Shown here piece after piece: positions 3,016 through 23,598 of a DNA stretch of 64,000 bases. Both the position numbers and the translations under genes were made by a program. Source of the DNA: an uncultured Anaerolineales bacterium (lineage in GTDB: Bacteria; Chloroflexota; Anaerolineae; B4-G1; SLSP01); assembly GCA_964508025.1 (NCBI GenBank), contig CAZDSF010000001.1:22320-86319 (forward strand), read 5' to 3'. The notes beneath the pieces were generated by a model. The model was not told the DNA's origin. It saw nothing but the letters and a program-made list of their open reading frames with translations, and did not search any database. Position 1 is the first letter of the stretch, and each line of letters opens with the position of its first letter.

Positions 3016-3075
3016 TGCGTACTGCGTAACCGGAAAATTCTTACGCATTACGAAGTACGCAGTACGTTATGTACG
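3008..3075. repeat. TACGCA/TGCGTA palindromic intergenic repeat (copy 1 of 3)
   Basis: taatgcgtactgcgtaa...ttacgcattacgaagtacgcagtacgtta; related copies at 7546-7615 and 8421-8490. Confidence 0.65.
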
Positions 3076-3120: not shown

Positions 3121-4383
3121 ATGCACCAACGCAAACTTGGCCGTGGCGTCGCGGTAGTCGGCGCGGGGATGAGCAAGTTCGGCGCGTTTCCCGGCCTGGC
3201 GACCCGCGATCTGTTCGTGGAGGCGTTCCGCGAGATGTTGGCCTCGGTGGATAAGGGCTTTGACGCCCGCGACATCGAAGCGCTGTACATCGGCAACTTC
3301 AGCAGCGACCTGTTCGAGGGGCAGGCGCATGTTGCGCCGATTATGGCCGACTGGGTTGGGCTGACCCCGCGCCCGGCCACCCGCATCGAAGATGCCTGCG
3401 CCAGCAGCGGCGTCGCGCTCCGCGAGGGCATCATCGCCATTGCCTCCGGCCTGTACGACATCGTGCTGGTCGGCGGCGTCGAGAAGATGACCGATCTGCC
3501 CACCGCTCGCGTCACCGATACGCTGGCGACCGCCGCCGATGTGACCTACGAGGTCGCGGCGGGCTTCACCTTCCCCGGCCTCTACGCCTCGATGGCGACG
3601 GCGTACATGGCGGCTTACGGCGCCACCCCCGAAGCCTTCCTCAAAGTGGGCCTCAAGAACCACGAAAACGGCGCGCTCAATCCCAAAGCGCAGTTCGGCC
3701 AGCGGATTGCGGACATCATGGAGGCGCGCAAAGCCAGCGCAGCGAAGAAAGGTAAGCCCATCCCCACCTGGGCGGATGAGCTGGCCTTTCTCACCGACGA
3801 GCGCGCCAATCCCACCATCGCCTGGCCGATGCGGCTCTACGACTGCTCGCCCATCTCCGACGGCGCGGCGGCGCTGCTGCTGGTGAGCGAGGAGCTGGCG
3901 ACGCGCTTCAGCAACGCGCCGCTCTATGTGGTGGGCGCGGGTCAAGCCAGCGACGGCGCGACGCATGACCGCCCCATCCTCACGGGCATCCCGGCGGCGC
4001 AGCGGGCCGCCCAGATGGCCTACGCGATGGCGGGCATTACCCCGGCGGACATCGCCCTGGCTGAAGTTCACGACTGCTTCACCATTGCTGAGATCATGGC
4101 GACCGAAGACCTGGGCTTTTTCGCGCCGGGCGAGGGCTGGCGGGCCGCCATTGAGGGGCGCACGGCGCGCACGGGCGACCGTCCCATCAACTGCTCCGGT
4201 GGCCTCAAATCAAAGGGGCATCCGGTGGGCGCATCGGGCGCGGGCCAGGTGTTGGAAATCTGGAAGCAACTGCGCGGCGAAGCGGGCGCGCGGCAGTTAC
4301 CGGGCGAGCTCCGCTTCGGGCTGACCCACAACGTCGGCGGCACGGGCCAGACCTGCGCCGTCCACATCTTCGAGCGGAGGTAG
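3121..4383 (+). CDS. thiolase-like protein (SCP-x / DUF35-partner type acetyl-CoA C-acyltransferase)
   Basis: AGGAGGAGG RBS; VAVVGAGMSKFG start, catalytic Cys region EDACASSG, C-terminal GHPVGASGAGQ; stop overlaps next gene start. Confidence 0.8.
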   Translation: MHQRKLGRGVAVVGAGMSKFGAFPGLATRDLFVEAFREMLASVDKGFDARDIEALYIGNFSSDLFEGQAHVAPIMADWVGLTPRPATRIEDACASSGVALREGIIAIASGLYDIVLVGGVEKMTDLPTARVTDTLATAADVTYEVAAGFTFPGLYASMATAYMAAYGATPEAFLKVGLKNHENGALNPKAQFGQRIADIMEARKASAAKKGKPIPTWADELAFLTDERANPTIAWPMRLYDCSPISDGAAALLLVSEELATRFSNAPLYVVGAGQASDGATHDRPILTGIPAAQRAAQMAYAMAGITPADIALAEVHDCFTIAEIMATEDLGFFAPGEGWRAAIEGRTARTGDRPINCSGGLKSKGHPVGASGAGQVLEIWKQLRGEAGARQLPGELRFGLTHNVGGTGQTCAVHIFERR

Positions 4384-4386
4384 ACC

Positions 4387-4806
4387 ATGAGCGAGCAAGC
4401 ATTTACCGGTACAGCATTCTATGAATTCCTGAAAGAGCACAAGCTTATGGGTGTGCGCTGCCCGCAGTGCGGCGCGATCTACGCCCCGCCGCGCCCGCTC
4501 TGCCCGGCCTGCCCCGAAGCTAATCTGGAATGGGTGGAGCTCTCCGGCGCGGGCAAACTGGCGAGCTACAGCGTCATCGCCATCGCGCCGACGGCCATGC
4601 TCGAAGCGGGCTACGGGCGCGAGAACCCCTACTGCTCCGGCGTGGTGGAGCTGGCCGAAGGGCCGCGCATCAGCGCGCAGATTCTCGGCGTGGATGTGGC
4701 GCACCCGGAGGCCATCGAAATTGGCGTTCCCGTCAAAGTCGCCTTCATCGAGCGCGGCAAGGGCGAGGCGCAGAAGACGTTTTTGGCGTTTGAGGTTGTC
4801 GCGTAG
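4387..4806 (+). CDS. DUF35 family Zn-ribbon/OB-fold protein (thiolase partner)
   Basis: CPQCGAIYAPPRPLCPACP Zn ribbon followed by OB-fold region; classic thiolase-DUF35 gene pair. Confidence 0.8.
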   Translation: MSEQAFTGTAFYEFLKEHKLMGVRCPQCGAIYAPPRPLCPACPEANLEWVELSGAGKLASYSVIAIAPTAMLEAGYGRENPYCSGVVELAEGPRISAQILGVDVAHPEAIEIGVPVKVAFIERGKGEAQKTFLAFEVVA

Positions 4807-4895: not shown

Positions 4896-4924
4896 TTTAC
4901 CATTTTATCAGGAGGAGGAATTCC

Positions 4925-7483
4925 ATGAAACGGCTTTCGAATGTATTGATGTTGGTGGTGCTGTTGGGTGGTTTGCTCAGCGCGTGTGTACAGAAGGTGG
5001 AGCCAACCGTCACCCCTGCGCCGACGACTGCCGCTCCCACGACTGCGGCTCCGACGCAAGCGACGCTCGGCTCGGTGCTGAAGATCGGGCAGATCTCAAT
5101 GTTATCCGGGGCGATGGCGCTATATGGACAACAGCAGGTGCGCGGCTTCGAGCTGGGGTTGGAATACGCTTCCGGCGGCAAGCAGGATGCGCAAGGGCGC
5201 TGGATCATCGCCAACCGCCCGGTGGAAGTGATCACGCGCGATGACGAGGGCAACCCGGAGAAGGGTGTGGCGGCGGCGCGCGAGTTGATTGAGAAGGATG
5301 GCGTGGAGATTCTGCAAGGGCCGGTAAGTTCGGCGGTGGCAGTGGCGCTCACGACTATTGCGCAGGAGAACAAGATCATCCTGATGATTGACCCGGCGGC
5401 ATCGGCGTTCCCGACGGGGCCGAACTTCAATCCCTACGTGTTCCGCACGAGCCGCACGAACTACGATGATGTGCTGGTGATCGCCAGGTATCTGGTGGAG
5501 AACGTAGGCGAGAAGTTCGCGCACATCGGCATTGATAACGCTTTCGGGCAGGGCAGCGGCATTGCGCTCAAGTTTGCGGTGGAGAAATATGGTGGGCGTG
5601 TGGTGGATGACATCTACGCGCCGTTTGATACGACGGACTTCACGCCGTACATTCAGCGGGCGATGGATTCGGGCGCGGACTGCCTGTTCCTGACCTGGTC
5701 GGGCACGGGTTACGTGACTTTGTTCCAGCAGTTGAGCGACCTGGGCGCGCTGGATGAGATGACCGTGGCGACCGGCTACGGCGACAATGCCTCCTTCGCG
5801 GCGGTCTACGGTTCGGCGTTGGGGCAAATCGGGCTGAATGTGTACCACTACACCGTGCCCGACAATCCCATCAACGATTGGCTGGTGAAGCGCCACCTGG
5901 AGGAGTTCAAGGAGCCGCCGGATCTGTTCACGGCGGGCGGCATGGCTTCCGCGTTGGCGCTGGCGGCGGCGTTGGAGAAGACGGGCGGCGATGCTACGGG
6001 TGATGTGATGATCAAGGCACTGGAGGGGCTGAAATTCGAAGGGCCTAAGGGCACGTACTTCATCCGCCCAGAGGATCACGTTTGCGAGCAGCCGATGAAC
6101 ATCCTGCGGCTCGTGAATCTGAACCCCGACCTCGATGGCGACGGCATTCCAGAGTACAAGTTCTTCGAGACGGTGTACGTCTCCAAGTATGATGAGTTGG
6201 GTGTGCCCTGCACGCTGACCGGCGACTACGCCGCGCGCTGTGAAGGGGTGGTCGCGCGGCAGGCAGCGCGCGCTGAGGAGAAACCGCTCGGCGAGGTGTT
6301 GAAGATCGGGCAGATCTCGATGCTTTCCGGCGTGATGGCGCTGTATGGACAGCAGCAGGTACGCGGCTTCGAGCTGGGGTTGGAATACGCCTCTGGCGGC
6401 AAGCAGGATGCGCAAGGGCGCTGGATCATCGCCAACCGCCCGGTGGAAGTGATCACGCGCGATGACGAGGGCAACCCGGAGAAGGGTGTGGCGGCGGCGC
6501 GCGAGTTGATTGAGAAGGATGGCGTGGAGATTCTGCAAGGGCCGGTGAGTTCGGCAGTGGCGGTGGCGCTCACGACCATTGCGCAGGAGAACAAGATCAT
6601 CCTGATGATTGACCCGGCGGCGTCGGCGTTCCCGACGGGGCCAAACTTCAATCCCTATGTGTTCCGCACGAGCCGCACGAATTACGATGATGTGCTGGTG
6701 ATCGCCAAGTATTTGGTGGAGAACGTGGGCGACAAGTTCGCGCACATCGGCATTGATAACGCTTTCGGACAGGGCAGCGGCATCGCGCTGGCTTACGCGG
6801 TGGGGCAGTACGGCGGCGAAGTGATCGCCGACATCTACGCGCCGTTTGACACGACGGACTTCACGCCGTACATTCAGCGGGCGATGGATTCGGGCGCAGA
6901 CTGCCTGTTCCTGACCTGGTCGGGCACGGGCTACGTGACCTTGTTCCAGCAGTTGAGCGATCTGGGCGCGCTGGATGAGATGACCGTGGCGACCGGTTAC
7001 GGCGACAATGCCTCCTTCGCGGCGGTCTACGGTTCGGCGTTGGGGCAGATCGGGCTGAATGTGTACCATTACACCGTGCCCGATAACGCCATCAACGACT
7101 GGCTGGTGAAGCGGCACCTGGAGGAGTTCAAGGAGCCGCCGGATCTGTTCACGGCGGGCGGCATGGCATCGGCGTTGGCGCTGGCCGCCGCGTTGGAGAA
7201 GACGGGCGGCGATGCTACGGGCGATGTGATGATCAAGGCGCTGGAGGGGTTGAAGTTCCAGGGGCCCAAAGGCACGTACTACATTCGCCCAGAGGATCAC
7301 GTTTGCGAGCAGCCGATGAACATTCTGCGGCTCGTGAATCTGAACCCCGACCTCGATGGCGACGGCATTCCGGAGTACAAGTTCTTCGAGACGGTGTACG
7401 TCTCCAAGTATGATGAGTTGGGTGTGCCCTGCACGCTGACCGGCGACTACGCCGCGCGCTGCGGTAATCTGCGCACGCCGTAA
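4925..7483 (+). CDS. fused tandem-duplicated branched-chain amino acid ABC transporter substrate-binding lipoprotein (two LivJ-like modules)
   Basis: AGGAGGAGG RBS; signal peptide with LLSAC lipobox; module 1 (~5083-6242) and module 2 (~6293-7452) ~95% identical in DNA and protein; type-I periplasmic binding fold. Confidence 0.8.
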   Translation: MKRLSNVLMLVVLLGGLLSACVQKVEPTVTPAPTTAAPTTAAPTQATLGSVLKIGQISMLSGAMALYGQQQVRGFELGLEYASGGKQDAQGRWIIANRPVEVITRDDEGNPEKGVAAARELIEKDGVEILQGPVSSAVAVALTTIAQENKIILMIDPAASAFPTGPNFNPYVFRTSRTNYDDVLVIARYLVENVGEKFAHIGIDNAFGQGSGIALKFAVEKYGGRVVDDIYAPFDTTDFTPYIQRAMDSGADCLFLTWSGTGYVTLFQQLSDLGALDEMTVATGYGDNASFAAVYGSALGQIGLNVYHYTVPDNPINDWLVKRHLEEFKEPPDLFTAGGMASALALAAALEKTGGDATGDVMIKALEGLKFEGPKGTYFIRPEDHVCEQPMNILRLVNLNPDLDGDGIPEYKFFETVYVSKYDELGVPCTLTGDYAARCEGVVARQAARAEEKPLGEVLKIGQISMLSGVMALYGQQQVRGFELGLEYASGGKQDAQGRWIIANRPVEVITRDDEGNPEKGVAAARELIEKDGVEILQGPVSSAVAVALTTIAQENKIILMIDPAASAFPTGPNFNPYVFRTSRTNYDDVLVIAKYLVENVGDKFAHIGIDNAFGQGSGIALAYAVGQYGGEVIADIYAPFDTTDFTPYIQRAMDSGADCLFLTWSGTGYVTLFQQLSDLGALDEMTVATGYGDNASFAAVYGSALGQIGLNVYHYTVPDNAINDWLVKRHLEEFKEPPDLFTAGGMASALALAAALEKTGGDATGDVMIKALEGLKFQGPKGTYYIRPEDHVCEQPMNILRLVNLNPDLDGDGIPEYKFFETVYVSKYDELGVPCTLTGDYAARCGNLRTP

Positions 7484-7500
7484 CGGCTGTGGATTAACGG

Positions 7501-7530
7501 GGAGACGGGCATCAGCGGGTGTCCGTCTCC
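7501..7530 (+). terminator. stem-loop after SBP gene
   Basis: ggagacggg catcagcgggtgt cccgtctcc, perfect 8-9 bp stem 18 nt after stop. Confidence 0.5.
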
Positions 7531-7545
7531 CTGAATCCGTAATTC

Positions 7546-7615
7546 GTAATCCGTAATGCGTAATCTGTAAGCGCGCTCTTACGCATTACGTAGTACGTAT
7601 TACGGATCACGTTAT
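7546..7615. repeat. TACGCA/TGCGTA palindromic intergenic repeat (copy 2)
   Basis: ccgtaattcgtaatccgtaatgcgtaat...ttacgcattacgtagtacgtattacgg. Confidence 0.65.
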
Positions 7616-7634
7616 CTTGATGGAGCTCAGATAG

Positions 7635-8429
7635 ATGACCAATTCGATGTCTGAACGCGAAGTGATTCTTGAGGTGCGCAACTTGCGCAAGGAGTTTGGC
7701 GGCCTGGTGGCGGTGGATGATGTGAGCGGCAAGGTGTACGCGCGCACCTTACACTCCATCATCGGCCCGAATGGCGCGGGTAAAACCACGTTGTTCAATT
7801 TGATGAGCGGCACGATGCCGCCGACACGTGGGCAGATCTTCTTCAAGGGTAAGGACATCACCCATCAACCCCCCTATCACATGGTGCATCAGGGGTTGGG
7901 CCGCTCGTTCCAGATCACCAACATCTTCCCGAATCTCACGGTGTTGGAGAACATTCGCCTTGCGGCGCAAGCGATAGGCCATGACAATTTCAAGCTCTTT
8001 CAGCATGTGAACCGTTTCACCCGGTATGAGGAGCAGGCCCGCGAGGTTATCGTCATGGTGGGTTTGCAGGGGCTTGAGTTAATGCCGGCGCGAAACCTGG
8101 CGCATGGGCAAAAGCGCAAGTTGGAGTTGGGGATCATGCTCGCCAGCAAGCCGGAAATCCTGCTGCTTGATGAGCCGACGGCGGGCATGTCCTCGGAGCA
8201 GGTGCCGGAATTGCTCGAGGTGTTGCGCCGGATCATGGAGCAAGGCGACAAGACCATTGTGCTGGTGGAGCATCGGATGGATGTGGTAATGAGCATTTCT
8301 GATACGATCACGGTGATGCACTTGGGGAATATCCTGGCAGAGGGCACGCCCCAGGAAATTGCCGCGAACGCTTTGGTACAGAAGGCGTATCTCGGCGCGC
8401 TGTATGGGGATTTGGGATCTACTGCGTAA
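7635..8429 (+). CDS. livG: branched-chain amino acid ABC transporter ATP-binding protein (LivG-like)
   Basis: Walker A GPNGAGKTT, ABC signature and Walker B LLLDEP; 264 aa. Confidence 0.8.
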   Translation: MTNSMSEREVILEVRNLRKEFGGLVAVDDVSGKVYARTLHSIIGPNGAGKTTLFNLMSGTMPPTRGQIFFKGKDITHQPPYHMVHQGLGRSFQITNIFPNLTVLENIRLAAQAIGHDNFKLFQHVNRFTRYEEQAREVIVMVGLQGLELMPARNLAHGQKRKLELGIMLASKPEILLLDEPTAGMSSEQVPELLEVLRRIMEQGDKTIVLVEHRMDVVMSISDTITVMHLGNILAEGTPQEIAANALVQKAYLGALYGDLGSTA

Positions 8430-8503: not shown

Positions 8504-9256
8504 ATGACACAGCAACAAGATTATATTCTCGAAGTAGACGCCATTCACACCTTCATCGGTCAGTTCCACATTCTGGAGGGAATTTCGTTGCAGGTGCGGC
8601 GGAATAGTATTACGGTATTGCTTGGACGCAACGGCGCCGGCAAGACAACAACGCTCAAGTCCATCCTGGGATTGACGCCGCCGCGCGAGGGCAAAGTGAT
8701 TTTCAATGGGCGCGAGTTGCAGGGCAAACGCGCGTATGACATCGCCGCAATGGGCATCGGCTACGTGCCGGAACACCGCGCCATCTTCCGCAATCTCAGC
8801 GTAGCCGAAAATCTCCGCATCGCCGAACGCAAAAAGGGTGATCTGGAGCGCCGGGCTGATTTCATCTTTGGCTTGTTCCCGGATCTGCAACGGCTCTACA
8901 AATTGCCGGGCAACCACCTTTCTGGCGGTCAGCAGCAGATGTTGGCGGTGGCCCGCGCGCTGGTGGCCGATAACACGCTGCTGCTCATTGATGAGCCGAG
9001 CGAGGGTTTGGCGCCTATTCTCATCGAGCAGATGATGGAGGCCATCCGCGAGCTCAGCGCCACGACGACGGTGTTGCTGGTAGAGCAGAACTTCCTCATG
9101 GCGAGCCGCCTGGCGCAGTATTACTACATCATTGATGACGGCAAGACGGCCCATGCAGGCGCCATGAGCGATTTGGTGCAGGATGAGGCGTTGATTCATC
9201 AGTATCTCGGCGCGGCGGTGCGGGCAAAAACCGGCGGTGACGGAGGTGGTAAATGA
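8504..9256 (+). CDS. livF: branched-chain amino acid ABC transporter ATP-binding protein (LivF-like)
   Basis: Walker A GRNGAGKTT, LSGGQQQM signature, LLLIDEP; stop overlaps next start. Confidence 0.8.
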   Translation: MTQQQDYILEVDAIHTFIGQFHILEGISLQVRRNSITVLLGRNGAGKTTTLKSILGLTPPREGKVIFNGRELQGKRAYDIAAMGIGYVPEHRAIFRNLSVAENLRIAERKKGDLERRADFIFGLFPDLQRLYKLPGNHLSGGQQQMLAVARALVADNTLLLIDEPSEGLAPILIEQMMEAIRELSATTTVLLVEQNFLMASRLAQYYYIIDDGKTAHAGAMSDLVQDEALIHQYLGAAVRAKTGGDGGGK

Positions 9257-10746
9257 AGCTCAGCAAATTCTGGCGTGAAAGCGGCACGCTCGTGACGGTA
9301 CTTCTTGTTCTGGCGGCGTTGAGCGTGATCGGTTGGGCCTCCATGGGCGCCCAACCCTTTGTCCGCACAACGCTTTCGGGTCTCACCCTGAGTGCGCTCT
9401 ACTTCATGGTGGCTGCCGGTCTCACCCTGGTTTTCGGCCTCATGGACGTGCTCAACTTCTCGCAGGGTTCGATGCTGATGGTTGGGGCTTACGCTGGTTG
9501 GCAATTCTACACCAACCCCACTTTCCTGTTCGGTCTCGCGCCGTTGGTCTTCGCCCTGATGGCCGGGCTGGCGATGATGGCGGTGTTGCATCCTCTCGTT
9601 GCACACTGGCCCATTCCTGAACACTGGCTATCGCGGTTTCGGGTGCTCATCATCGTGGCAGCGGTATTGATCGGCTTGCTGGCAGTGTGGGGCTTTGATT
9701 TCCGCGATCTGGCCTCGACGGCGATGGTGGCGACGATGGTTGCTGCCAATCCGCTGGCAGAAGCCACACCGCAAGAAGCCCTGGCGCGTTTTTGGATTCG
9801 GCCTGTGCTGTTGTTCCTCTCCGGCGTGTTGATCGCGTTGGCGCAGGCGCGCCCCGGCGATCCGACGGTCGTCGTTCACAAGGATCAGACCCGCCGCAGC
9901 GGGATGATCGTGGGCGGCTTGCTGGCGCTGACCCTCATTGCCACGCTGGGACGGGAAGCCGGCCCCATCGCAGTGCTCACTATGCACGGCAATCTACGTT
10001 TTGTGCTGGCGCTGATCGTCGGCGCGCTGATCGGCGCGGGGCTGGGCGCCGTCATCGAGATGACGCTCATTAGCCCGCTTTACGTCCGTCCTTTGTATCA
10101 GATCATCATCACGATGGGCCTGGCGTTTGTGATTGCGGAGCTCATTCAAGTGCTCTGGGATCCGCTGCCCTACGCGATGAGCCGTCCGCCGGCGTTTTCA
10201 CAGCCGGGCAAGGCGGAGAATATCTGGGCCTTCTTCCGGGGCGGCAATACCACGGTGGATATTTTGGGCGTGACTTTCCCTAGTTACCGCCTGTTCATCA
10301 TCGTATTGGGCGTGTTGATGTTTGTGGCGCTCACGCTCATTCTCAAGTATACCCGCCTGGGCATGATCATCCGCGCGGGCGTGCAGGATCGGGAGATGGT
10401 GGAGGCGTTGGGCATCAACGTGAAGCGGGTCTTTACGATGGTTTTCGCCTTGGGCACCGGGCTGGCGGCGTTGGGCGGCATCGGCGCGGCGCCCTTTATC
10501 CCTGTGGAGCCGATCATGGGCGACCGATTCTCGATGCAGGGTTTCATCACCGTGGTGATTGGCGGGATGGGCAGCACCACGGGCGCGGCGGTAGGGGCGT
10601 TGCTGCTGGGACTGGCGCGTGCTTTTGGCGATTACCTGGCGCTGCGATTTGGTCTGACCCCGGCCATATCGGAGGCTTCCACGGTGATCATTATGGCGAT
10701 TGTGCTGCTGGCGCGTCCGGCGGGATTGCTGGGCAGGAGGGAATAA
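9253..10746 (+). CDS. livH: branched-chain amino acid ABC transporter permease (LivH-like) with ~200-aa internal insertion
   Basis: N-terminal LivH signature NFSQGSMLMVGAY; C-terminal half is canonical; residues ~100-330 are extra hydrophobic segments. Confidence 0.75.
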   Translation: MKLSKFWRESGTLVTVLLVLAALSVIGWASMGAQPFVRTTLSGLTLSALYFMVAAGLTLVFGLMDVLNFSQGSMLMVGAYAGWQFYTNPTFLFGLAPLVFALMAGLAMMAVLHPLVAHWPIPEHWLSRFRVLIIVAAVLIGLLAVWGFDFRDLASTAMVATMVAANPLAEATPQEALARFWIRPVLLFLSGVLIALAQARPGDPTVVVHKDQTRRSGMIVGGLLALTLIATLGREAGPIAVLTMHGNLRFVLALIVGALIGAGLGAVIEMTLISPLYVRPLYQIIITMGLAFVIAELIQVLWDPLPYAMSRPPAFSQPGKAENIWAFFRGGNTTVDILGVTFPSYRLFIIVLGVLMFVALTLILKYTRLGMIIRAGVQDREMVEALGINVKRVFTMVFALGTGLAALGGIGAAPFIPVEPIMGDRFSMQGFITVVIGGMGSTTGAAVGALLLGLARAFGDYLALRFGLTPAISEASTVIIMAIVLLARPAGLLGRRE

Positions 10747-10750
10747 GCAA

Positions 10751-11890
10751 ATGGCGAATAGCAAATCTGCAAAGCTGCAAAGCGTCAGGGGCGAGAATCC
10801 AGGCGCGAAACTTTTGGGCTTTGTCCGGCAGCAATGGGGGGGCTTGGTGGTGCTGGCAGGGCTGATCCTGTTTCCGTACATCTACAGCTTGCTGAGCGGC
10901 TTGCCCGTGGATCGCGGTGCGCCGAAGTTCTGGCAGGGTCAGCTGATCGTGATCTTCATCATGGCGGTCTACGCGATGAGCTATGACCTGCTGCTGGGTT
11001 ACACCGGGATTCTGTCTTTCGGGCACGCAGCGTTTTTTGGCGGTGGGGCTTACGCGATGGCGCTCTTCCTCACCCACGTTGCGCCTAAAGTCACGGGCAG
11101 CTATCGCATCATGATTGGCGCTGTGAATATCACGGATTTTCTGATGTTGCTGGCGGGCTTCCTGCTCGCCTTGATGGTGGCGGTGCTGTTGGGCTTGTTG
11201 TTCAGCGCAGTTTCATCGCGTGTTCGCGGCGCCTATTTCGCCATGATCACGCTGGCGATGGCGCAAGCCATCCACATCCTCTCAAAAGCGACCGATTTTG
11301 TGAAGTGGACCGGCGCAGATGAGGGGCTGCACGGCGTGCCGGTGCCGGCGTGGATCAATCCGACGCAGTTCCGCCTGCGTTTCTACTTCATCGCCCTGGG
11401 CTTTGCCGTCATCATGTACCTGGTGACGCGCCGGATTGTCAACTCGCCCACGGGCCGCATTTTCGTGGCGATCCGCGAGAACGAGAGCCGCGTGCGGATG
11501 ATTGGCTACAATCCCGCTGTCTATCGCACGATTGCCTTCACCACGGCGGCGGTGATCGCCGGGCTGGCCGGCGGGCTGTACGCACTCTGGACGATGAGCG
11601 CGACGCCCACGATGACGGGCGCGGGCCTCACCATCAACGCGCTGATCATGGGCATCCTTGGCGGCATTGGTACGCTCAGTGGGCCGATGTTGGGGGCGGC
11701 GCTGATGGAATTCCTGGGGCATTTCTTCTACCAGTGGTTCGGCGCGCGTTGGCCCCTGGTCTTTGGCGTGCTCTTTATCCTGCTGGTGCTCTTCCTGCCT
11801 TATGGCATCGTGGGCACATGGCAGTTGCGGCGGTTGGAGCTGCAACGGGGTTGGAAACGCTTGTTGCGGCTGCTCAAGCCGGAAGAATAG
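10751..11890 (+). CDS. livM: branched-chain amino acid ABC transporter permease (LivM-like)
   Basis: ATG 10751 after GGAGGG; multi-TM, ...SFGHAAFFGGGAYA... LivM-type motif. Confidence 0.75.
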   Translation: MANSKSAKLQSVRGENPGAKLLGFVRQQWGGLVVLAGLILFPYIYSLLSGLPVDRGAPKFWQGQLIVIFIMAVYAMSYDLLLGYTGILSFGHAAFFGGGAYAMALFLTHVAPKVTGSYRIMIGAVNITDFLMLLAGFLLALMVAVLLGLLFSAVSSRVRGAYFAMITLAMAQAIHILSKATDFVKWTGADEGLHGVPVPAWINPTQFRLRFYFIALGFAVIMYLVTRRIVNSPTGRIFVAIRENESRVRMIGYNPAVYRTIAFTTAAVIAGLAGGLYALWTMSATPTMTGAGLTINALIMGILGGIGTLSGPMLGAALMEFLGHFFYQWFGARWPLVFGVLFILLVLFLPYGIVGTWQLRRLELQRGWKRLLRLLKPEE

Positions 11891-11971: not shown

Positions 11972-14900
11972 TTACGCGATCAGATCTCCCAGCCGCAATT
12001 GCCGGAAGGTCTCATTTTTCAGCAGCAGCCGCAAGGCCCGCAATTCGCGCAGCAGATGGGTGATTTCGCTCAGCGGCAGGCTCACTCGCGCTGCGAGCGC
12101 TTCTGGCGCTGCGAAGAGCAACGCCTCCAGCGGCGTATCGGCAAATACCGCGTAGGTTTTTGCATCCAGCTGCAACGATTCCACAAGTTCCGCCGTGGCC
12201 TTTACCTCCAGCAGCCGTTCGGCGGTGCGGCTATCCAATTCGGGCAGGCGTTCGATGTGCGCCAGCTCGGCGATGGTCTTGACGCCGGCTTCGGCAAACA
12301 AGGCGCCCATCGCAGGGCCAACGCCAGCAATGCTTTCAATGGCCTGCTCGCCCAACTTTGTAACGGGCCTCAAAGTTGTGGGCTGGGGCGCCGGCTTCAT
12401 GATCACGGGAGCGCTGATTTGGCGCGCGCGGTATGGCGCTGCCAGCAGTTCCAGTTCCGGCGTTACGATGGGGTTCGGCAACGGCGGCGGCTCGTAGGTG
12501 ACGTGGAAGCCAGACACGGTGAGCGTTCCGGGTGCTTCGGAGAGGAAATTGAGCGGGACGACGGCGACATCGTCTTGCGTGAGCGAGATCCAGCGTAGGG
12601 CGATGTTCTCCGCGTCCTGCGGTTTGATCCACCGGATCTCGACATGGGTAGCCTGGGGCGGCGCTTCGCTGCGCCACGCGCGGGTGGGGAAATCAGGCCC
12701 ATCGAGGGGGAAGAGGGCCGGCGCGTCCAACGCGCTTTCTCCGCGCAGCCAGTGCAGCTCCACCCGCGCGTGCTGCGCTTCTGGCAGCGCGCTCGTATCG
12801 CCCGGAGGGCCTGTTCTCACGGTCTGGAACCGCAGGGTGTAGCCGGCGCCCCCCTTGATCGCGGCGCGCTGGATGAAGCGCACCTGCTCTGGGGTGCGCT
12901 GTTCCGTCCACCCTACAGGCGCCTGTAACATTTCGGGAGGGAACACGCCGTTGATCAGCCGTTCGCAAGTGGGGGTAAAGGTCGCCGTCCGCACTTCCAG
13001 CGCGCCCGGCGCGGGCTGTTCCAACCGCACCTCAGCTTGTACCGCTTGGGGCGGCGCTGTTATCAGGGTGGTGAGCGCCATGCTGCGATCCTTTTCATTC
13101 TGTGGACGCAGCACGCCTTGCGCCGCTTCGAGCTGTACTTCGCCAGCATCGAACCAGATCACGCGCCAGAGCGCCGCGGTCAATGTCTCCGCCAGGCGAT
13201 GGGGTATCGCCTCCAGGCGCAGCGCGTAGGTGCAACCGCCGCTCACTGCGATGCGCTGCGCCAGGAAGGGCGTCTCGCTGGCGGGCGCGGCGGGTTTTTC
13301 TGCGGTTGCGGCGAAACAGGCCGAAAGCCATTCGGCTGCTTGCGCTGCGCCTTTCGAGCGCTCGGCGACAATTGCGGCGGGCGCTGTTGGCTCAGGGGAC
13401 GGTGCAACCACTACTCTGGAAAAGCCGCTGGGCGGCGGGGTGCTGGTGGGGGCAGGCGCCCTCGCGGCGGCGCTTGCCGCGCGGGTGGCATTTTTCCCTT
13501 CCGGTGGCGCGACTGTCGAAGGCGCGATCAACAGCGTTTGCAACTGCCCGCTTACGGGATTGCGCAGGCGGAGGACGCGATTCGGGTTGCCGTTCCAGTG
13601 TTGCGGCAGCTGGTATCTGCACCAGGTATGGAGATGCGCCGCGCTCGATGGCCCATCCGTCGGCGAGCGGATGATGAGCCGCTTGACGCCGGTCTGCCCT
13701 TCGACTTCCCCATAGCTGGCGACGGATGCCTTCATGGCGTGATTGATCGCAGCGATGACCTCATCGCGGTGGGTGCGCGCCGGTTCCAGGCCCGCGCAGT
13801 GGATGCAGATCGGCTCTCCGTCGTCAATGGCGAGGGTGATGGCGCGCTCGCGGCTCAGATCCAGCACTGCTTCCAGCGCCACTTCGCCCTCCAATTGCGC
13901 CGAGTAGGCTGTGGCATAAGGCGTGATGCTGCGCGCGCCAAAGCCGAAGAGCCGCCACGAGGCGTCATCGTGCCCCGGCAGCGCGAAATCCGCATTGGCG
14001 AGCAGGTTGCCCGCGCCGCAGGGCGAGACCATCGCAGGTGAACTGAGCACTGTATCAAGGGCGGCGCCGAAATCCACGGCAAATTCGATGCGTCCCAGCG
14101 GCGCGAAGGCGTCGAAGCGGACGGCCTGCGCTTCTGCCCCGGCGCCCACTTGCAGCTGCACCGGCACGCTGAAGCGCTGGGGGGTGTGCCGCAGGCGGAA
14201 GCTGGCCGCGCCGCCGCCGTTGACCGCGCGCCACGAGAAACCGCCATCCGTGGAGCGGTGCAGGCCCGGCGCGGCGCCAGCGTCGCTGTGGAGCGCCCAA
14301 TCTGCCTCGCCTTCGAGGCTTTGCAGAACCAGCCAGTAGCGGCGTCCCGGCAGAAAGTGATAGGTGGTGGGGAGCCTGACGTTGCGCCAGCCAGCGTCGC
14401 CGGGCGGCGCGCTTTCCAGGCGCAGCTCGGCGCGGAGCAATACCTCGCCGGAGGGTTTGCTATCGGCGTCGCTCTGGAGCGCCAGCTGCAAGGTTGCCGC
14501 AGCAGCGCAGGTCAGCGGCAGATCTATGCTGCTCGCGGGCGTTTCGTTCGCTGTCTCGAAAGGTTGCGCCAGGCTTTGAGAGGCGGTCACGGGCAGCGCG
14601 CCCACGTCCTGGCGGGCGCCGATTGCGCCCAGGACGATTCGGCTGCTCTCGAAGCTGCCGCGCACGTGACCCTCGGCGCTGACGATGCGCGCGCCGCGCG
14701 GCGCGCGGGCCTGGAGCAGCGCGGCCTGTTCGCCAGCGGCCTGCGTGCTGAGATCGTAGGTCAGCGACGCTTCGGGCAGGTGCGCCGGCAACACGGCCAT
14801 TTTGAGCGTGTACTCCAGAGTCACGGTAATGGCCAGCGCGGCGATGGTATCCGAATGAAAGGTGAACGGCAGCGCGTAGAAGCCGTTTTCGGCGGCGGCG

Positions 14901-15532
14901 GTTTGGAGGAAGGCGTTGAGCACGGCGGCGAAATCTGGCGAGACGGCAGGCCCGGTCAACGCGCCGAGGTGCGTCCAGACCGGCGACAGCGTTCCCACCC
15001 GCGCGCTGATGTTCGTGGGGACGCTGCGCAGCGTGACGCCGCCCAGGCTGATCTTTCCATTTGGGTCCACGAGGCCATTTTCGGTCACGGCGGTGAGTTT
15101 GAGCTTCTCGGCGTTGAGGGGCGGCAGGGTGATCTCGCTTATAGCCGCGTTCAGCGGCAGCAGTAGTGGCAGCTTATCCGGCGCGAACGGGGTCCCATCG
15201 GCGGCGAGGCCCATCCATACGCCGCCTACATCCATCTGGATGCTGGCAAACCCACCGGGATTGCGCGCCGCGCGCAGCGCGTTGAAGCTGCACCGCGCGT
15301 GGAAATCCGCTACCGCCCAGTGCTGGAGGCCGATAGTGGGTGGCTCGCGCGTGAGGCCCCAGTCGCCCGATCCGGCGTCATCGAATGTGACCGGATACAC
15401 GCCGCTGCCGACCGGCGCCAGCGTCGTCGTCGCCTGGGTGATGTGCGCGCCTTCGGGCAGGCTGCGCAGCCACAGGACGAGGTCGCCCTCGAAAGGGGCG
15501 TTCTGCCCCGCAAAGGATTCCTGGAGTCGCAT
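11972..15532 (-). CDS. large distal protein at tail-fibre position (1186 aa) with C-terminal helix-hairpin-helix region
   Basis: Last gene of cluster after baseplate J/I-like genes (P2 H position); internal ~45-aa ...EVIAAINHA...SPTDGP... module shared with upstream baseplate gene; C-terminus ...IESIAGVGPAMGALFAEAGVKTIAELA... fits HhH pattern. Confidence 0.5.
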   Translation of the reverse strand: MRLQESFAGQNAPFEGDLVLWLRSLPEGAHITQATTTLAPVGSGVYPVTFDDAGSGDWGLTREPPTIGLQHWAVADFHARCSFNALRAARNPGGFASIQMDVGGVWMGLAADGTPFAPDKLPLLLPLNAAISEITLPPLNAEKLKLTAVTENGLVDPNGKISLGGVTLRSVPTNISARVGTLSPVWTHLGALTGPAVSPDFAAVLNAFLQTAAAENGFYALPFTFHSDTIAALAITVTLEYTLKMAVLPAHLPEASLTYDLSTQAAGEQAALLQARAPRGARIVSAEGHVRGSFESSRIVLGAIGARQDVGALPVTASQSLAQPFETANETPASSIDLPLTCAAAATLQLALQSDADSKPSGEVLLRAELRLESAPPGDAGWRNVRLPTTYHFLPGRRYWLVLQSLEGEADWALHSDAGAAPGLHRSTDGGFSWRAVNGGGAASFRLRHTPQRFSVPVQLQVGAGAEAQAVRFDAFAPLGRIEFAVDFGAALDTVLSSPAMVSPCGAGNLLANADFALPGHDDASWRLFGFGARSITPYATAYSAQLEGEVALEAVLDLSRERAITLAIDDGEPICIHCAGLEPARTHRDEVIAAINHAMKASVASYGEVEGQTGVKRLIIRSPTDGPSSAAHLHTWCRYQLPQHWNGNPNRVLRLRNPVSGQLQTLLIAPSTVAPPEGKNATRAASAAARAPAPTSTPPPSGFSRVVVAPSPEPTAPAAIVAERSKGAAQAAEWLSACFAATAEKPAAPASETPFLAQRIAVSGGCTYALRLEAIPHRLAETLTAALWRVIWFDAGEVQLEAAQGVLRPQNEKDRSMALTTLITAPPQAVQAEVRLEQPAPGALEVRTATFTPTCERLINGVFPPEMLQAPVGWTEQRTPEQVRFIQRAAIKGGAGYTLRFQTVRTGPPGDTSALPEAQHARVELHWLRGESALDAPALFPLDGPDFPTRAWRSEAPPQATHVEIRWIKPQDAENIALRWISLTQDDVAVVPLNFLSEAPGTLTVSGFHVTYEPPPLPNPIVTPELELLAAPYRARQISAPVIMKPAPQPTTLRPVTKLGEQAIESIAGVGPAMGALFAEAGVKTIAELAHIERLPELDSRTAERLLEVKATAELVESLQLDAKTYAVFADTPLEALLFAAPEALAARVSLPLSEITHLLRELRALRLLLKNETFRQLRLGDLIA

Positions 15533-15590
15533 GGCGGCCTCCTCATAAAGGATGAAGGTGCAAGGCGGAAGGATGAAGTCGTGCTACACC
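15533..15590 (-). promoter_or_regulatory. conserved ~50-nt leader motif upstream of distal-protein gene (copy 1)
   Basis: coding-strand TTCATCCTTCCGCCTTGCACCTTCATCCTTTATGAGGAGGCCGCCATG; ~80% identical to 21161-21212. Confidence 0.5.
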
Positions 15591-15613
15591 TTCGCGTTTC
15601 AACGCTTCAACTG

Positions 15614-15656
15614 GGGGATTGACGCCGCCGCGTCTGGCGTAGCAACGTCAATCCCC
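15614..15656. repeat. perfect 11-bp inverted repeat with 21-nt loop
   Basis: gggggattgacg ... cgtcaatcccc between the orphan gene and the distal-protein gene. Confidence 0.6.
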
Positions 15657-15676
15657 TTTCCATCGGCTAGATGCGG

Positions 15677-16624
15677 CTAGATGCGTAGGAGAACCATCAA
15701 ATCCACATTTACCACCCGTGGAATGTTCTGTCGCCCGGTGAGGAGTCTTAGCGCGATGGCATCGTAGCTCAATTGCGCCACATCCAACCACCAGGGCACA
15801 TTTCCAGGAACCTCATCATCGCCCGGCAGCCGCCCATACAGCAGGCTGACGGGGCGCATGACCCAGCGGATGTCATCCCACTCATCGTTGACTTTGAGTT
15901 CGGCGACCTTCATCCGCCGCCGCTCATTGATCCAGGGAGAGACGGCGTATTCCATCGGATCCACCCACGGCGGTTTGAAGAAGGCTTGCAGGAAGTCGTT
16001 GTAGACGTCGCCCAGGGTGTCATCGTCCTCCCATTCGACGTGATACTCGTCCAGCATCGCTTCGAAGGGGATGCCCCACGGCGCGCGCACCATGCCGCGA
16101 TCTTCAGTGAAGAGCCGGTCCCGCTCACGTTCCTCGTGGTGGTAGTAGAGATAGAACTTCGTCGGCGGCGCTCCGCCTCCCGTCGCCACCAGCTCCTTGC
16201 GGATTTGTTCCATCTTCTCGCGCTCCTCTTTTTCCAGGAGGTTGAGCGGCGTCCACGGCTGGGTGTTCAGCACCTCCAGCAGTTCGTAGACATCCACCAA
16301 CGGAAAGCGCCCCAACTGGTGATTGAGGACGACGGTTTGCCCCGGACGGATGCGCTTGAAATAGCGCCGGTAGACGGCGCGCCCTTCGTGATTATGGGCC
16401 CTGGGCGCGTAGCGCTCATCGAGCCGCTCGACCCACTCCTTGGGCGTGCGCTTGTCGAATTGATCGGCGTTGTCGGCGCGCGAGACGCCCTCCTGAGTGA
16501 TGCGCGTGCGCAGCGCCTCGCCTTGGGTTTCCATATCCTCCTGGATGCGCTCTTGCATCGTGTTCCAATCCTCAGCGGTGATCAGGTCCCCCGGCTCACG
16601 GCGAATATACGGTTGCCTGGACAT
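15677..16624 (-). CDS. hypothetical acidic, Trp-rich protein inserted between baseplate-I-like and fibre-position genes
   Basis: 315 aa, GGAGAAATAAG RBS; no recognisable domain; ...DLITAEDWNTMQERIQ... N-terminus. Confidence 0.45.
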   Translation of the reverse strand: MSRQPYIRREPGDLITAEDWNTMQERIQEDMETQGEALRTRITQEGVSRADNADQFDKRTPKEWVERLDERYAPRAHNHEGRAVYRRYFKRIRPGQTVVLNHQLGRFPLVDVYELLEVLNTQPWTPLNLLEKEEREKMEQIRKELVATGGGAPPTKFYLYYHHEERERDRLFTEDRGMVRAPWGIPFEAMLDEYHVEWEDDDTLGDVYNDFLQAFFKPPWVDPMEYAVSPWINERRRMKVAELKVNDEWDDIRWVMRPVSLLYGRLPGDDEVPGNVPWWLDVAQLSYDAIALRLLTGRQNIPRVVNVDLMVLLRI

Positions 16625-16740
16625 CTTATTTCTCCTTTCGTTAGTGAAATGCGTAACAAACTCTGGTGCTGGGTGAAGCGTCAGGGGTAACGAGGCAGGA
16701 AAGGGCCGGGTCGCAAATATCGCCCAATCACTTCATTGCC

Positions 16741-16800
16741 CAATCCCCCTCTCTCCCCATCTCCCCGTCTCCCCGTCTCCCTATCATCCCATCTCCCCAT
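16741..16800. repeat. CTCCCCATCTCCCC tract (G-runs on coding/minus strand), copy 1
   Basis: ctctccccatctccccgtctccccgtctccctatcatcccatctcccc in 160-nt intergenic gap. Confidence 0.6.
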
Positions 16801-19105
16801 CGTCTTCCGCTGGCGCGCGCACCGTTTCACGGGTAACGGCGACGCGGACACCGGCAGCTTTGGCTTGCAGCACGCCGACCGGTCCCGGCTTGAGCAATGC
16901 CGCAGCTTGCAACGGCAGCGTCTCGGCGCCGCCAAGGACGACGCGCCGCGCGTTCTCGAAGCGCCCGCCCATGAAAGCGATGGTCAGCTCGAAGCGGGCC
17001 GGCCCGGCATAGCGCGCGGCGACGGTGATGGCGTTGCCCCACGCGCCGGGCCTCACCGCGCGCAGTTCCACGTAGCCCTCGACGCCTTCCTCGGCGAGAT
17101 AGAGCCGCGCCGCCGAGGTCTCGCTGCCCAGCGTGAGCGCGCGCGGCTTGCGGAAGGGCATGACGACCGGCGCCCACCCCAGCGGCGCGCTCGCTACTTT
17201 CTCCGCGACAACGAGCGCCGAGCGGGCGTTGATCCGCGTCGCCAGATAATCGGCGTCGCTCTCCGGCTCGGCGACGACATCCGGGTAGATTTCGGGCGCA
17301 TCTGCCGGTTTGCTGAAGCGTGCGCTATCGAAGCGCCCGCCAAAACGCGGCGGCAGGTCGGCGGGCAGATGGACGACGAAGGCGCCCCGTTCGTGGGATG
17401 CCCAGCGCACGGTAACGTTGACCAACGCGCCCACCGCTTCACGCGCGGCGAAGACGGTCTGCCCGGCGAAGGCGGGGTCGTCTTCAAGGCGGCTGATATC
17501 GAAAAGCCCCGCCATGCGGCAGACGCCGCCGGTGAAGGCGGTTGCCGGCGCATCGAAGCGCGCCTGATCGAAGCGGCTGCCGCCGCAATCGGCGTAGCGC
17601 CAGCGAGAAACGCCGCGCGGCAGGAACAGTGCGGCGTTGCCGGTCTCGATCTCAGCAGCGAGCGGGAGCGCGTGCAGGTTTTCGGTTGCTACCGGACGCG
17701 CTGCGCCATCGGCGGCGTGAATTTCGGCGCGCAATCCCCCTTCTGCAGCGCGCCACAGGCGCACGCGCTCGCCCGGCTCGAGCACTTCGTTCACGCGCAC
17801 GGCCCAGCCGGTGGCAAAGTTGGCGATCAAGGGGCCGTAAACCCCGCGCGGCGCGGCGATGTCCACTTCTGCAAAAACGCCCGCCGCGCCCTGATTGGCG
17901 AGGCGCAGGCTATCGCCATGGCGCAGGCTGTGCGGCCCGAAGCGCGCCGGTCTGGCGGGATATTCGATGAGCTCGAGATACCGCAGGGGCAGCACCGCGA
18001 TGCGGCTTTCTGGCCCGGCGGTGGGCGATTGCAGCCGCAGCCGGTGATCGGGGGTTTCGGAGGCGACGCCCGGCAGCGCGGCGTTGATGGCCGCGATGAC
18101 TTCATCCAGAAAGGGGCGGTCGGGCGCGGCGCCTGCGACCGTGAGGTCCACGGGCGGCGCGCCGTCAATGGCAAGCCGCAGCAACGCCCGCTGTGAGAGA
18201 TCCACCGGCCCGCGCAGCGATACCGCGCCTTCCAGCGTAGCCCGGCCTGGCAGCGCGCCTTTGGTGATGGTGGGGACCTGTCCCAGCAGGCGTGTGCGGG
18301 CGTCCGCGCCGCTGATGGGCAACCCGATGGCGATGCGCGCGTTCTCCCCCGCCGTGGGCGACGTGAGCGCCAGGAAGCGCCTCTCGTGGATGCTGGCGAT
18401 TTCGGCGCCCGCCTGCGCGTTGATCGCCGCCGTGATCTCGGCGAGCGTTGTGGCGCGCGGACGGGCGCCCGCGCAATCTATTTCCACGGCGGGGCCGGCG
18501 TCTATGGTGAGGCGCAGATAGCGCGCTGTGCTCAGATCCACACTGCGGCTCAGGTCTACGGCGCCGATCACTTGCGCGGGCATTGCCGGCTCGCCGCGCG
18601 CTTCGCGGCAGATGAAGCCGCAGAGCGCCAGCGCCGCCTCATCGGTGATCGCCGCGCGGGTGACGAAACGCCGGGCGTTCTCCTCCGCCGATGCGGTGAG
18701 GGGATCGCTTTTCCGTGTCCACCACGTGTCCATATCGGCGTAGGCGTCGGCAATGTGCAGGTTCAGGGCCTCTGCCGTGACCCGGAGAATGCCTTGGACG
18801 GCGACGGTCCCTTGCAGGAAAGTGCGCACGTACCGCTTGAGATGCTCGCGGAACTCCTCGACGCTTTCATCGGGGCGGGGCGCCAGGCCGTAGAGCGCGG
18901 CGAGCAGCGCCAGGTCGTGGATCTCTTCCTCCTGCCAATCCGCGAGATCCACCCAATGCGCCTGCATCACTGCGGCAAGGCTGTTTTCGGCAGCCTGCAG
19001 CTCGCGCCCAAAAGCAGCGGCGACGGCGTGAAGTGCGGAGGCGACCGGCGCCTGGCGGAAGGTTCCGGGCAGCAGGCTCAGAATGCGCTCGGTTTTGGTG
19101 GGCAT
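16784..19105 (-). CDS. baseplate protein, phage P2 gpI-like N-terminus with repeat-domain C-terminal extension
   Basis: Start at internal Met (MPTKTERILSLLPGTFRQ...) overlapping upstream stop; LLPG..R motif characteristic of tail protein I family; two ~45-aa IAAINA...SPTAG modules. Confidence 0.6.
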   Translation of the reverse strand: MPTKTERILSLLPGTFRQAPVASALHAVAAAFGRELQAAENSLAAVMQAHWVDLADWQEEEIHDLALLAALYGLAPRPDESVEEFREHLKRYVRTFLQGTVAVQGILRVTAEALNLHIADAYADMDTWWTRKSDPLTASAEENARRFVTRAAITDEAALALCGFICREARGEPAMPAQVIGAVDLSRSVDLSTARYLRLTIDAGPAVEIDCAGARPRATTLAEITAAINAQAGAEIASIHERRFLALTSPTAGENARIAIGLPISGADARTRLLGQVPTITKGALPGRATLEGAVSLRGPVDLSQRALLRLAIDGAPPVDLTVAGAAPDRPFLDEVIAAINAALPGVASETPDHRLRLQSPTAGPESRIAVLPLRYLELIEYPARPARFGPHSLRHGDSLRLANQGAAGVFAEVDIAAPRGVYGPLIANFATGWAVRVNEVLEPGERVRLWRAAEGGLRAEIHAADGAARPVATENLHALPLAAEIETGNAALFLPRGVSRWRYADCGGSRFDQARFDAPATAFTGGVCRMAGLFDISRLEDDPAFAGQTVFAAREAVGALVNVTVRWASHERGAFVVHLPADLPPRFGGRFDSARFSKPADAPEIYPDVVAEPESDADYLATRINARSALVVAEKVASAPLGWAPVVMPFRKPRALTLGSETSAARLYLAEEGVEGYVELRAVRPGAWGNAITVAARYAGPARFELTIAFMGGRFENARRVVLGGAETLPLQAAALLKPGPVGVLQAKAAGVRVAVTRETVRAPAEDDGEMG

Positions 19106-19106
19106 T

Positions 19107-21160: not shown

Positions 21161-21212
21161 GGCGGCTCCTGTAAAAATTATGAAGGATCAAGGCGGAAGG
21201 ATGAAAAAGACC
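21161..21212 (-). promoter_or_regulatory. conserved ~50-nt leader motif upstream of gp25-like gene (copy 2)
   Basis: coding-strand TTCATCCTTCCGCCTTGATCCTTCATAATTTTTACAGGAGCCGCCATG. Confidence 0.5.
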
Positions 21213-21300
21213 TTGCATCCCAGCGTTTGTGCGCTTCTACGCTTATAATTTTCATTATCTGGACTGTGCCAAATACCCCTTTGAAATTGGGAAATAGTGG

Positions 21301-21350
21301 ATGAGGTCTTTTCTCCCCATCTCCCCATCTCCCCCATCTCGCCATCCCTC
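21301..21350. repeat. CTCCCCATCTCCCC tract, copy 2 (G-runs on coding strand)
   Basis: tctccccatctccccatctcccccatctcgccatccctccc in 197-nt gap between PAAR and gp25-like genes. Confidence 0.6.
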
Positions 21351-21357
21351 CCGCTGC

Positions 21358-21690: not shown

Positions 21691-21714
21691 GGCGCTCCTT
21701 TCATCCCGCTCCTT

Positions 21715-23593: not shown

Positions 23594-23598
23594 AGCCT

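Follow-up and report, generated by a model that had tools for sequence, protein, structure and literature searches.

Tandem substrate-binding domains are a textbook oddity among ATP-binding cassette (ABC) importers, known chiefly from importers of the GlnPQ type. In GlnPQ of Lactococcus lactis and other Gram-positive bacteria, each of the tandem domains binds ligand on its own, and the domains compete with one another for docking (PMC8025302). Within the literature that we searched on tandem or fused binding proteins in Chloroflexi/Anaerolineae, GlnPQ and OpuA were the only systems to emerge and no type-I tandem lipoproteins were found. The closest described single-module systems belong to the HAAT family, in which the Rhodopseudomonas palustris protein RPA4397 (3n0x/3nnd) and the aromatic-acid binders 4ey3, 4f06 and 4evs share the fold and Pfam family of the protein discussed here, as well as its operon type of two ATPases and two BPD_transp_2 permeases. 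These relatives, of which Escherichia coli LivJ is a distant one, carry one module per polypeptide, whereas the protein that we describe carries two. It is encoded in a 64-kb window from an uncultured Anaerolineales bacterium (the window being the whole 64,000-nucleotide stretch of DNA that was analysed) by an open reading frame (ORF) at positions 4925-7483 of the plus strand, which specifies a lipoprotein of 852 amino acids (aa). Such proteins are numerous in databases under generic names, and tandem type-I binding lipoproteins and their concerted evolution are apparently undescribed.

Like GlnPQ, the window protein carries two complete binding domains serially within a single polypeptide on the outside of the membrane, where they would feed one ABC translocator. 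The linkers, 14 aa in GlnPQ and 18 aa in the window protein, are both short and flexible, and just as the GlnPQ domains fold and bind independently, the AlphaFold2 model of the window protein consists of two confident modules without a fixed orientation. The two systems differ in that the GlnPQ domains are of type II (cluster F) and the window modules of type I (Peripla_BP_6); in that the GlnPQ domains are fused to the transmembrane domain, whereas no permease domain follows module 2 in the window protein, the permeases being encoded by genes of their own; and in that the GlnPQ domains differ in specificity and affinity, whereas the window modules are 96.7% identical, apparently through gene conversion. 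We consider it likely that the window protein is a lipid-anchored two-module receptor which arose by an old duplication, and whose modules, homogenised by gene conversion, bind the same ligand and feed an ABC importer. Under this model, a signal peptide and a lipobox at Cys21 would provide the membrane anchor and a tether of ~30 aa would carry two serial “Venus-flytrap” modules, the whole serving the adjacent LivFGHM-type ABC importer as its receptor. The whole mature module would have been duplicated in tandem, once and in frame, in an old event that gave rise to both modules, after which the resulting 1.18-kb direct repeats would have repeatedly swapped sequence by intragenic gene conversion, with a 40-nucleotide (nt) tract remaining copy-specific in some lineages and being overwritten in others. 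By analogy with GlnPQ, both modules would recognise one and the same ligand and take turns in docking to the neighbouring permease; two sites per lipid anchor may be advantageous by raising the local receptor concentration and improving capture.

When the ORF is compared with itself, the best offset is 1221 nt, or 407 codons in frame, and every other offset gives at most 34% identity. The DNA repeat so defined, 5064-6241 against 6285-7462, has 76 mismatches over 1178 nt and no gaps (93.5% nt identity, or 95% once a single 50-nt hotspot is excluded), and it is the only pair of long direct repeats in the window. Because no rival offset exceeds 34% and no second long direct repeat occurs in the 64 kb, the repeat in the binding-protein gene stands far above chance. 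The initial annotation had read the architecture correctly, as an in-frame tandem duplication (the 407-codon offset) of two complete type-I modules (the two Peripla_BP_6 stretches described below) joined by the short linker EGVVARQAARAEEKPLGE. The repeat coordinates that it gave do mark a repeat, but the second interval (6293-7452) is shifted by 11 nt relative to the first, so that the implied offset of 1210 nt departs from the measured 1221 nt, and its figure of ~95% identity is replaced by 93.5% for nucleotides and 96.7% for the amino acids of the 389-aa modules. The gene is laid out as follows, with the basis for each feature in parentheses.

4910..4919, plus strand: Shine-Dalgarno-like sequence AGGAGGAGGA, 5 nt 5' of the ATG (sequence reading)
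4925..4987, plus strand: signal peptide and lipobox L-S-A-C, aa 1-21 (translation; AlphaFold2 helix at residues 2-20)
4988..5074, plus strand: flexible Pro/Thr/Ala-rich tether, aa 22-50 (composition; predicted local distance difference test score, pLDDT, below 50 at residues 20-45)
5064..6241, strand not assigned: DNA repeat copy 1 (self-comparison)
5075..6241, plus strand: module 1, aa 51-439, a complete type-I periplasmic-binding-protein fold (PF13458 at residues 52-397; AlphaFold2; Foldseek)
5569..5608, plus strand: divergent copy-specific tract KFAVEKYGGRVVDD in module 1, aa 216-228 (mismatched with copy 2 at 20 of its 40 nt)
6242..6295, plus strand: inter-module linker EGVVARQAARAEEKPLGE, aa 440-457 (sequence; homologous linkers in seven relatives)
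6285..7462, strand not assigned: DNA repeat copy 2, at offset +1221 (self-comparison)
6296..7462, plus strand: module 2, aa 458-846, a second complete type-I binding fold (Pfam; AlphaFold2; identity to module 1)
6790..6829, plus strand: partner tract AYAVGQYGGEVIAD in module 2 (of the type seen in most single-module relatives)
7463..7483, plus strand: C-terminal tail GNLRTP and stop codon (translation)

Module 1 ends at the conserved Cys429...Cys439 pair, and its pLDDT is mostly 80-96. The first 43 nt of the linker (6242-6284) form a unique junction sequence between the end of copy 1 and the start of copy 2; a source for it was sought upstream of copy 1 and downstream of copy 2, where only chance matches of 7-10 nt were found, and its origin is no longer traceable at the age of the duplication. 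A 726-aa minus-strand ORF at 5120-7300 and other overlapping ORFs are treated as shadow ORFs of a GC-rich gene.

By profile, fold and operon partners the protein belongs to the type-I Peripla_BP_6 proteins (HAAT-family ABC receptors). The Pfam profile Peripla_BP_6 (PF13458) scores 462.6 bits against a gathering cut-off of 31.7 and matches in two stretches, the better of which spans positions 2-339 of the 343-position profile. At the N-terminus, MKRLSNVLMLVVLLGGLLSAC comprises a signal peptide whose lipobox, LSAC at residues 18-21, fits the pattern [LVI][ASTVI][GAS]C; Cys21, at least 90% conserved among 51 double-module relatives, is presumed to be the lipidated membrane anchor. An AlphaFold2 model built with 51 double-module sequences has a mean pLDDT of 85.9 and a predicted TM-score (pTM) of 0.51, with low confidence only at residues 20-45 (the tether) and 447-452 (the linker, where a short helix is modelled at 442-449). 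Taken together, the high mean pLDDT, the pTM of 0.51 and the confinement of low confidence to tether and linker indicate two well-folded modules without a fixed mutual orientation. In each module a cysteine pair (C429/C439 and C836/C846) is invariant in the 51-protein alignment and probably forms a disulfide.

Searched against the PDB with Foldseek, the model gives matches that each span one module only (TM-score normalised to the query, TMq, at most 0.41). The best is 3n0x, the R. palustris protein RPA4397, with a target-normalised TM-score (TMt) of 0.92, a root-mean-square deviation of 2.2 and 33% identity; aromatic-acid, urea, amide and amino-acid binders rank after it, and 4zpj has a TMt of 0.89. 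Sequence searches likewise give E = 8e-57 for 3n0x and E = 4e-10 for E. coli LivJ. Among the NCBIfam models that would name a ligand class, all score far under their cut-offs: the LivJ-type model PRK15404 reaches 96.9 bits (cut-off 477) and UrtA 126 bits (cut-off 493), neither at equivalog level, and the LivJ, UrtA and archaeal urea models together span about 97-126 bits against cut-offs of 477-495. We read “LivJ” or “amino acid binding” here as a family-level label only, and the annotation “branched-chain amino acid binding protein” as unjustified for such genes.

The age of the duplication can be judged from relatives that share its junction. Double-module proteins with a EGVVARQAARAEEKPLGE-like linker, here termed Q-type, make up the window clade, which comprises the window protein, P0001/L001 (97% identical, from an ENA sample), P0002/L002 (91% identical, from a Joint Genome Institute sample), L004 and L006 (two metagenome-assembled genomes, MAGs, of different species clusters), L087 (from activated sludge), L090 and L091. 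In all eight assemblies, representing at least four lineages, a homologous 18-aa linker follows directly after the same cysteine: EGVVARQAARAEEKPLGE in the window and L001, AGVVQRQAEQAEEKPLGP in L002, L087 and L091, EGIAARQSQQAEEEPLGE in L004 and L006, and AGVEERQAAAEAPVELGE in L090. The flanking genes are 90-97% identical to those of the window in L001, 77-86.5% in L002 and 76-80% in L004, and between orthologues the modules are 81-86% identical with 0.70-1.04 synonymous substitutions per synonymous site (dS). Given the shared junction, the duplication is old: at least four related Anaerolineae lineages split only after it, and the similarity of the two modules within each gene must therefore be maintained. 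The initial annotation had proposed a very recent duplication undergoing gene conversion; the second half of that proposal agrees with a within-gene dS below that between orthologues, and the first is contradicted by the occurrence of one junction in lineages with an orthologue dS of 0.7-1.0 and flanks that are 76-86% identical.

The pattern of similarity among these genes is that of concerted evolution. Within single genes, the two modules have a nucleotide identity of 93.7% in the window, 99.6% in L001, 95.5% in L002, 99.2% in L087 and 86.6% in L004, and the within-gene dS values are 0.24 (window), 0.011 (L001), 0.12 (L002) and 0.56 (L004), against 0.70-1.04 between orthologues. Informative sites were sorted by quartets, a site being counted as concerted when both copies of one genome jointly differ from both copies of the other. 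The window-L002 quartet has 117 concerted sites, 14 positional sites (copy 1 with copy 1) and 1 crossed site, and the window-L004 quartet has 87, 14 and 9, respectively. Ten of the 14 positional sites of the window-L002 quartet fall within 45 nt (permutation p < 5e-5), that is, in the tract at 5569-5608/6790-6829, which is near saturation over the enclosing 45 nt (proportion of synonymous differences, pS, 0.77; of non-synonymous differences, pN, 0.31). The copy-1 signature of this tract, E[KQ]YGGRVVDD, recurs in the first copies of L002 and L004 and, as EKYGGR, in L090, and copy 2 of the window has the type of most single-module relatives. Overwriting of the tract has given both copies the copy-1 type in L001 and, as a separate event, in L087. 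The modules are also mosaic in their identity, which in a sliding window across L004 is 91-95% in the 5' half and 75-82% at the 3' end.

These observations—a shared homologous junction, copies within a genome that are closer than positional orthologues, and mosaic tracts—point to intragenic gene conversion between the two halves of one ORF as the source of the concerted evolution. Concerted evolution by gene conversion is known in duplicated bacterial genes, for example the tuf genes and the rRNA operons. The window clade resembles these cases in that paralogues within a genome are closer than orthologues between genomes and in having mosaic tracts. Unlike in the tuf genes and rRNA operons, the exchanging repeats are halves of a single ORF, so that homogenisation acts on the domains of one protein, and unequal exchange can collapse the gene to one module, as one relative discussed below (L008) appears to show.

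The differences that have survived between the two copies look like those of evolved coding sequence. Third codon positions account for 56 of the 76 differences, 51 of the affected codons being synonymous and 14 non-synonymous, and there are 53 transitions and 23 transversions. Between the modules, dS is 0.237 and the non-synonymous rate (dN) is 0.020, giving a dN/dS of 0.084 (0.04 outside the tract), which indicates strong purifying selection on both modules. The 14 amino acid differences are all at variable columns of the 51-protein alignment and leave its invariant and near-invariant columns untouched. Since both modules are under purifying selection and differ at positions that vary across the family, they most likely bind the same ligand.

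The same differences may be read instead as sub- or neofunctionalisation, in which the modules would differ in ligand, in affinity or in a spacer or docking role and selection would keep the tract divergent. Consistent with this, the tract at aa 216-228 carries the charge changes K216A, E220G, K221Q, R225E and D228A and has been kept copy-specific in three to four lineages, and outside it the substitution A63V lies within the first conserved loop, SG[AV]MALYG. The tandem domains of GlnPQ do differ in specificity, and other species carry a different binding-protein family N-terminally at the orthologous locus. Against it, the overwriting of the tract in L001 and L087 with the frame intact argues that copy-specificity is not essential, and the remaining differences are conservative and lie on variable columns. 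In the AlphaFold2 model the tract occupies the C-terminal end of helix 206-221 and the start of strand 225-232, an end that, by the usual alpha/beta lobe topology, would face away from the ligand cleft. A tract with 50% mismatch can also persist passively, by blocking the formation of heteroduplexes. We regard functional divergence of the modules as improbable on this evidence.

An assembly collapse or expansion artefact, which the initial annotation had offered as its other explanation, would have the repeat expanded from a single module or built by stringing together variants from strains that diverge by 6.5%. The assembly is likely to be of metagenomic type, all relatives being MAGs; the modules of L001 are 99.6% identical, and the window copies are 94.3% and 93.7% identical to those of L001 and 93.7% to each other. 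The contigs of L006, L091 and L089 end within module 2, which suggests that assemblers struggle with the repeat and shows it to be an assembly hazard, although the junction is still read through in all three. However, eight assemblies, drawn from several studies, all conserve the unique 43-nt junction, the copies of L004 are only 86.6% identical and hence unambiguous for any assembler, and L002 and L004 show exactly the distribution of tract types over copies 1 and 2 that the window does. The substitutions that separate the copies are also those of real evolved sequence, being largely synonymous, 74% of them at third positions, with a dN/dS of 0.08. An artefactual duplication is, in our estimation, very unlikely. 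A strain chimera could merely reassign variants between copies and could never create the tandem architecture; that some variants have been assigned to the wrong copy in this way in the present assembly is equally unlikely, and the architecture and the evolutionary conclusion would be unaffected, since they rest on seven other assemblies.

Least probable of all is that each lineage duplicated the module independently and recently, without gene conversion: such duplications do recur in the subfamily, with at least three other junction types (P0003/L003, L088/L089 and the distant clade below) and with 99-100% identical modules in several of these doubles, but they would recreate neither the same linker nor the same copy-specific tract, whereas the junction of the window clade is homologous in position, length and sequence across a dS of up to 1.0 and its near-saturated copy-1 tract (pS 0.77) is common to three lineages.

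A receptor formed by an old duplication and kept uniform by gene conversion is therefore the reading that we retain, and several points weigh against it. That two near-identical sites bring a benefit is proposed by analogy with GlnPQ, a system with another fold class, domains of unlike specificity and a covalent link to the permease, and ligand binding and docking by both modules are predictions. The exact 852-aa protein has no record in the gene-position index, an exact scan of metagenome contigs for the 54-nt linker found no match and thus no second assembly of the same strain, and a protein-based follow-up scan of metagenomes found further doubles, none above 92% identity and again no same-strain assembly. 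All Q-type doubles bear contig names in the style of short-read assemblers (NODE_, k87_ etc.), and support from contigs longer than 1 Mb is limited to the more distant clade of doubles. Copy number and the assignment of variants to copy 1 or copy 2 rest here on assembled sequence. Finally, there are close single-module relatives, L008 (90% aa identity) and L011 (88%), from whose existence the second module would seem to be dispensable or easily lost.

One of these single-module genes, L008 at 6001-7335 of JAKJAC010000016.1, is itself instructive, as its centre resembles copy 1 of L004 and its 3' end resembles copy 2 of L004; it is consistent with the collapse of a double, either by unequal exchange in the cell or during assembly at 2.5x coverage. 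A further protein, P0004 (535 aa, NCBI), joins ~20 residues of a module start to the last ~50 residues, which are followed by a linker and a complete second module, and has the look of a double that suffered an internal deletion, or of a mis-assembly.

The initial annotation had also asked whether orthologues in relatives are single- or double-module, and both kinds were found: double-module proteins account for 56 of the 120 best database relatives, and the close singles L008 and L011 stand beside them. All named doubles are from Chloroflexota (Anaerolineae/Anaerolineales, Ardenticatenaceae, Caldilineales and Promineifilaceae). A distant clade of doubles, ~40-45% identical to the window protein, has a junction that combines a full C-terminal tail (GDLPxGxLxx) with an acidic spacer and a C.EP motif. 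Many members have an internal identity of 75-89% and group by position, first modules with first modules and second with second, and other members have 95-100% internal identity; doubles of this clade (L060, L066, L068 and L073) are found on contigs of 1.1-3.8 Mb, one of them titled chromosome. Other junctions consist of GDLPTP followed by TSPGAPAEEELGE in P0003/L003 and of GNLPRP followed by GVAAVPKPLGE in L088/L089. From these differing junction types, module doubling has arisen at least four times in this Chloroflexota subfamily. The double-module architecture is confined to the subfamily and is not general to Peripla_BP_6: after clustering at 50% identity, only two double-module representatives remain in the best 150. 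As a gauge of how frequent doubles are, the 50%-clustered library is uninformative, the window clade being represented in it by a single-module protein.

At the orthologous locus in other Anaerolineae the LivJ-like module is found in heterologous fusions, in which it is C-terminal and a member of another family is N-terminal. The N-terminal partners are an RbsB-like Peripla_BP_4 module (P0044, in two separate samples), a MalE-like module (P0007), one Bmp-like module (P0023) and two Bmp-like modules (P0029/L047). The fusion ORFs lie at the following positions of their own sequences.

L084, 8001-10385: heterologous-fusion ORF
L085, 5069-7453: heterologous-fusion ORF
L086, 43-2547: heterologous-fusion ORF
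L047, from 1451: heterologous-fusion ORF

As a tentative and rather doubtful extension, the conserved locus might, in Anaerolineae and related Chloroflexota, host a “poly-binding-protein” design, in which one lipid anchor bears a chain of modules whose membrane-proximal slot has been repeatedly refilled. If so, the slot would have been filled by a second copy of the same module (with at least four independent junctions) or by RbsB-, MalE- or Bmp-like modules from other families of transporter. Chaining itself would then be selected, for instance for anchor sharing, for reach through a thick envelope or sheath, or for coupled capture of several nutrients, and gene conversion would keep the homotypic chains functionally uniform.

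For the receptor that we propose, the interest is that a different fold class (type I), in the form of a free-standing lipoprotein, would have repeatedly reached a GlnPQ-like solution in a major, poorly cultured phylum. The window clade also appears to provide an unusually clean natural case of concerted evolution between two domains of one protein, complete with a datable junction, a tract that escapes conversion, parallel homogenisations and an apparent collapse to one module. Metagenome assemblies are especially prone to contig breaks and copy-number errors at such genes.

The gene order of the surrounding operon—thiolase, DUF35/ChsH2-type oligonucleotide/oligosaccharide-binding (OB) protein, binding protein, two ATPases and two permeases—is kept across the orthologous loci. 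In the window, the neighbours of the binding-protein gene are the following.

3121-4383, plus strand: thiolase-like protein (Pfam/NCBIfam)
4387-4806, plus strand: DUF35/ChsH2-type OB-fold partner of the thiolase (Pfam/NCBIfam)
7484..7634, plus strand: intergenic region with two strong hairpins, from the binding-protein gene to the first ATPase gene (minimum free energy -69 kcal/mol, z = -7)
7635..8429, plus strand: LivG-like ABC ATPase with a BCA_ABC_TP_C tail (Pfam)
8504..9256, plus strand: LivF-like ABC ATPase (Pfam)
9253..10746, plus strand: LivH/UrtB-like BPD_transp_2 permease of 497 aa with a long N-terminal extension (Pfam, NCBIfam)
10700..11890, plus strand: second BPD_transp_2 permease (Pfam)

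The thiolase and DUF35 pair (3121..4806) is syntenic with the binding-protein gene throughout the family, the thiolase being of PRK06064 type (437 bits against a cut-off of 420), and an alpha/beta hydrolase is often also linked. This linkage may hint at a substrate class other than amino acids. In the permease at 9253-10746 the BPD_transp_2/UrtB-like match begins only at about residue 217-246, and the length of its N-terminal extension is conserved in L001-L003 and L084. The second permease probably starts near 10751, by analogy with a 379-aa gene call in L001.

The spacer at 7484-7634 is 97% conserved in L001. Its second hairpin consists of inverted arrays of a CGTAATN heptamer, of which a smaller palindrome lies at 3018-3075, upstream of the thiolase gene, and the motif CGTAATNCGTAAT has 9 occurrences against 0.11 expected. 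An Rfam scan of the window gave no match. The spacer may be an element like the repetitive extragenic palindromes (REP-like), or an mRNA stabiliser or attenuator that boosts expression of the binding protein over the rest of the operon.

Beyond the operon, the minus strand from ~11972 to 31000 looks like a contractile-injection-system or phage-tail-like cluster, with these genes recognised.

19107-20693, minus strand: baseplate J (Pfam)
21715-22521, minus strand: gp5/VgrG-type OB spike (Pfam)
22592-23740, minus strand: gp44-like hub (Pfam)
23599-25440, minus strand: OmpA/peptidoglycan-binding protein (Pfam)
28782-30464, minus strand: tail sheath (Pfam)

Several large minus-strand ORFs have no Pfam match, among them 11972-15532 (1186 aa) and 16784-19222 (812 aa). 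The stretches at 31936-47891 and 59289-62750 are rich in signalling genes, including a hybrid histidine kinase/receiver, a HisKA_3 kinase, a 1164-aa kinase with four GAF domains, a HAMP kinase beside an HtrA-like protease and a 1153-aa BTAD-NACHT/NB-ARC-TPR protein.

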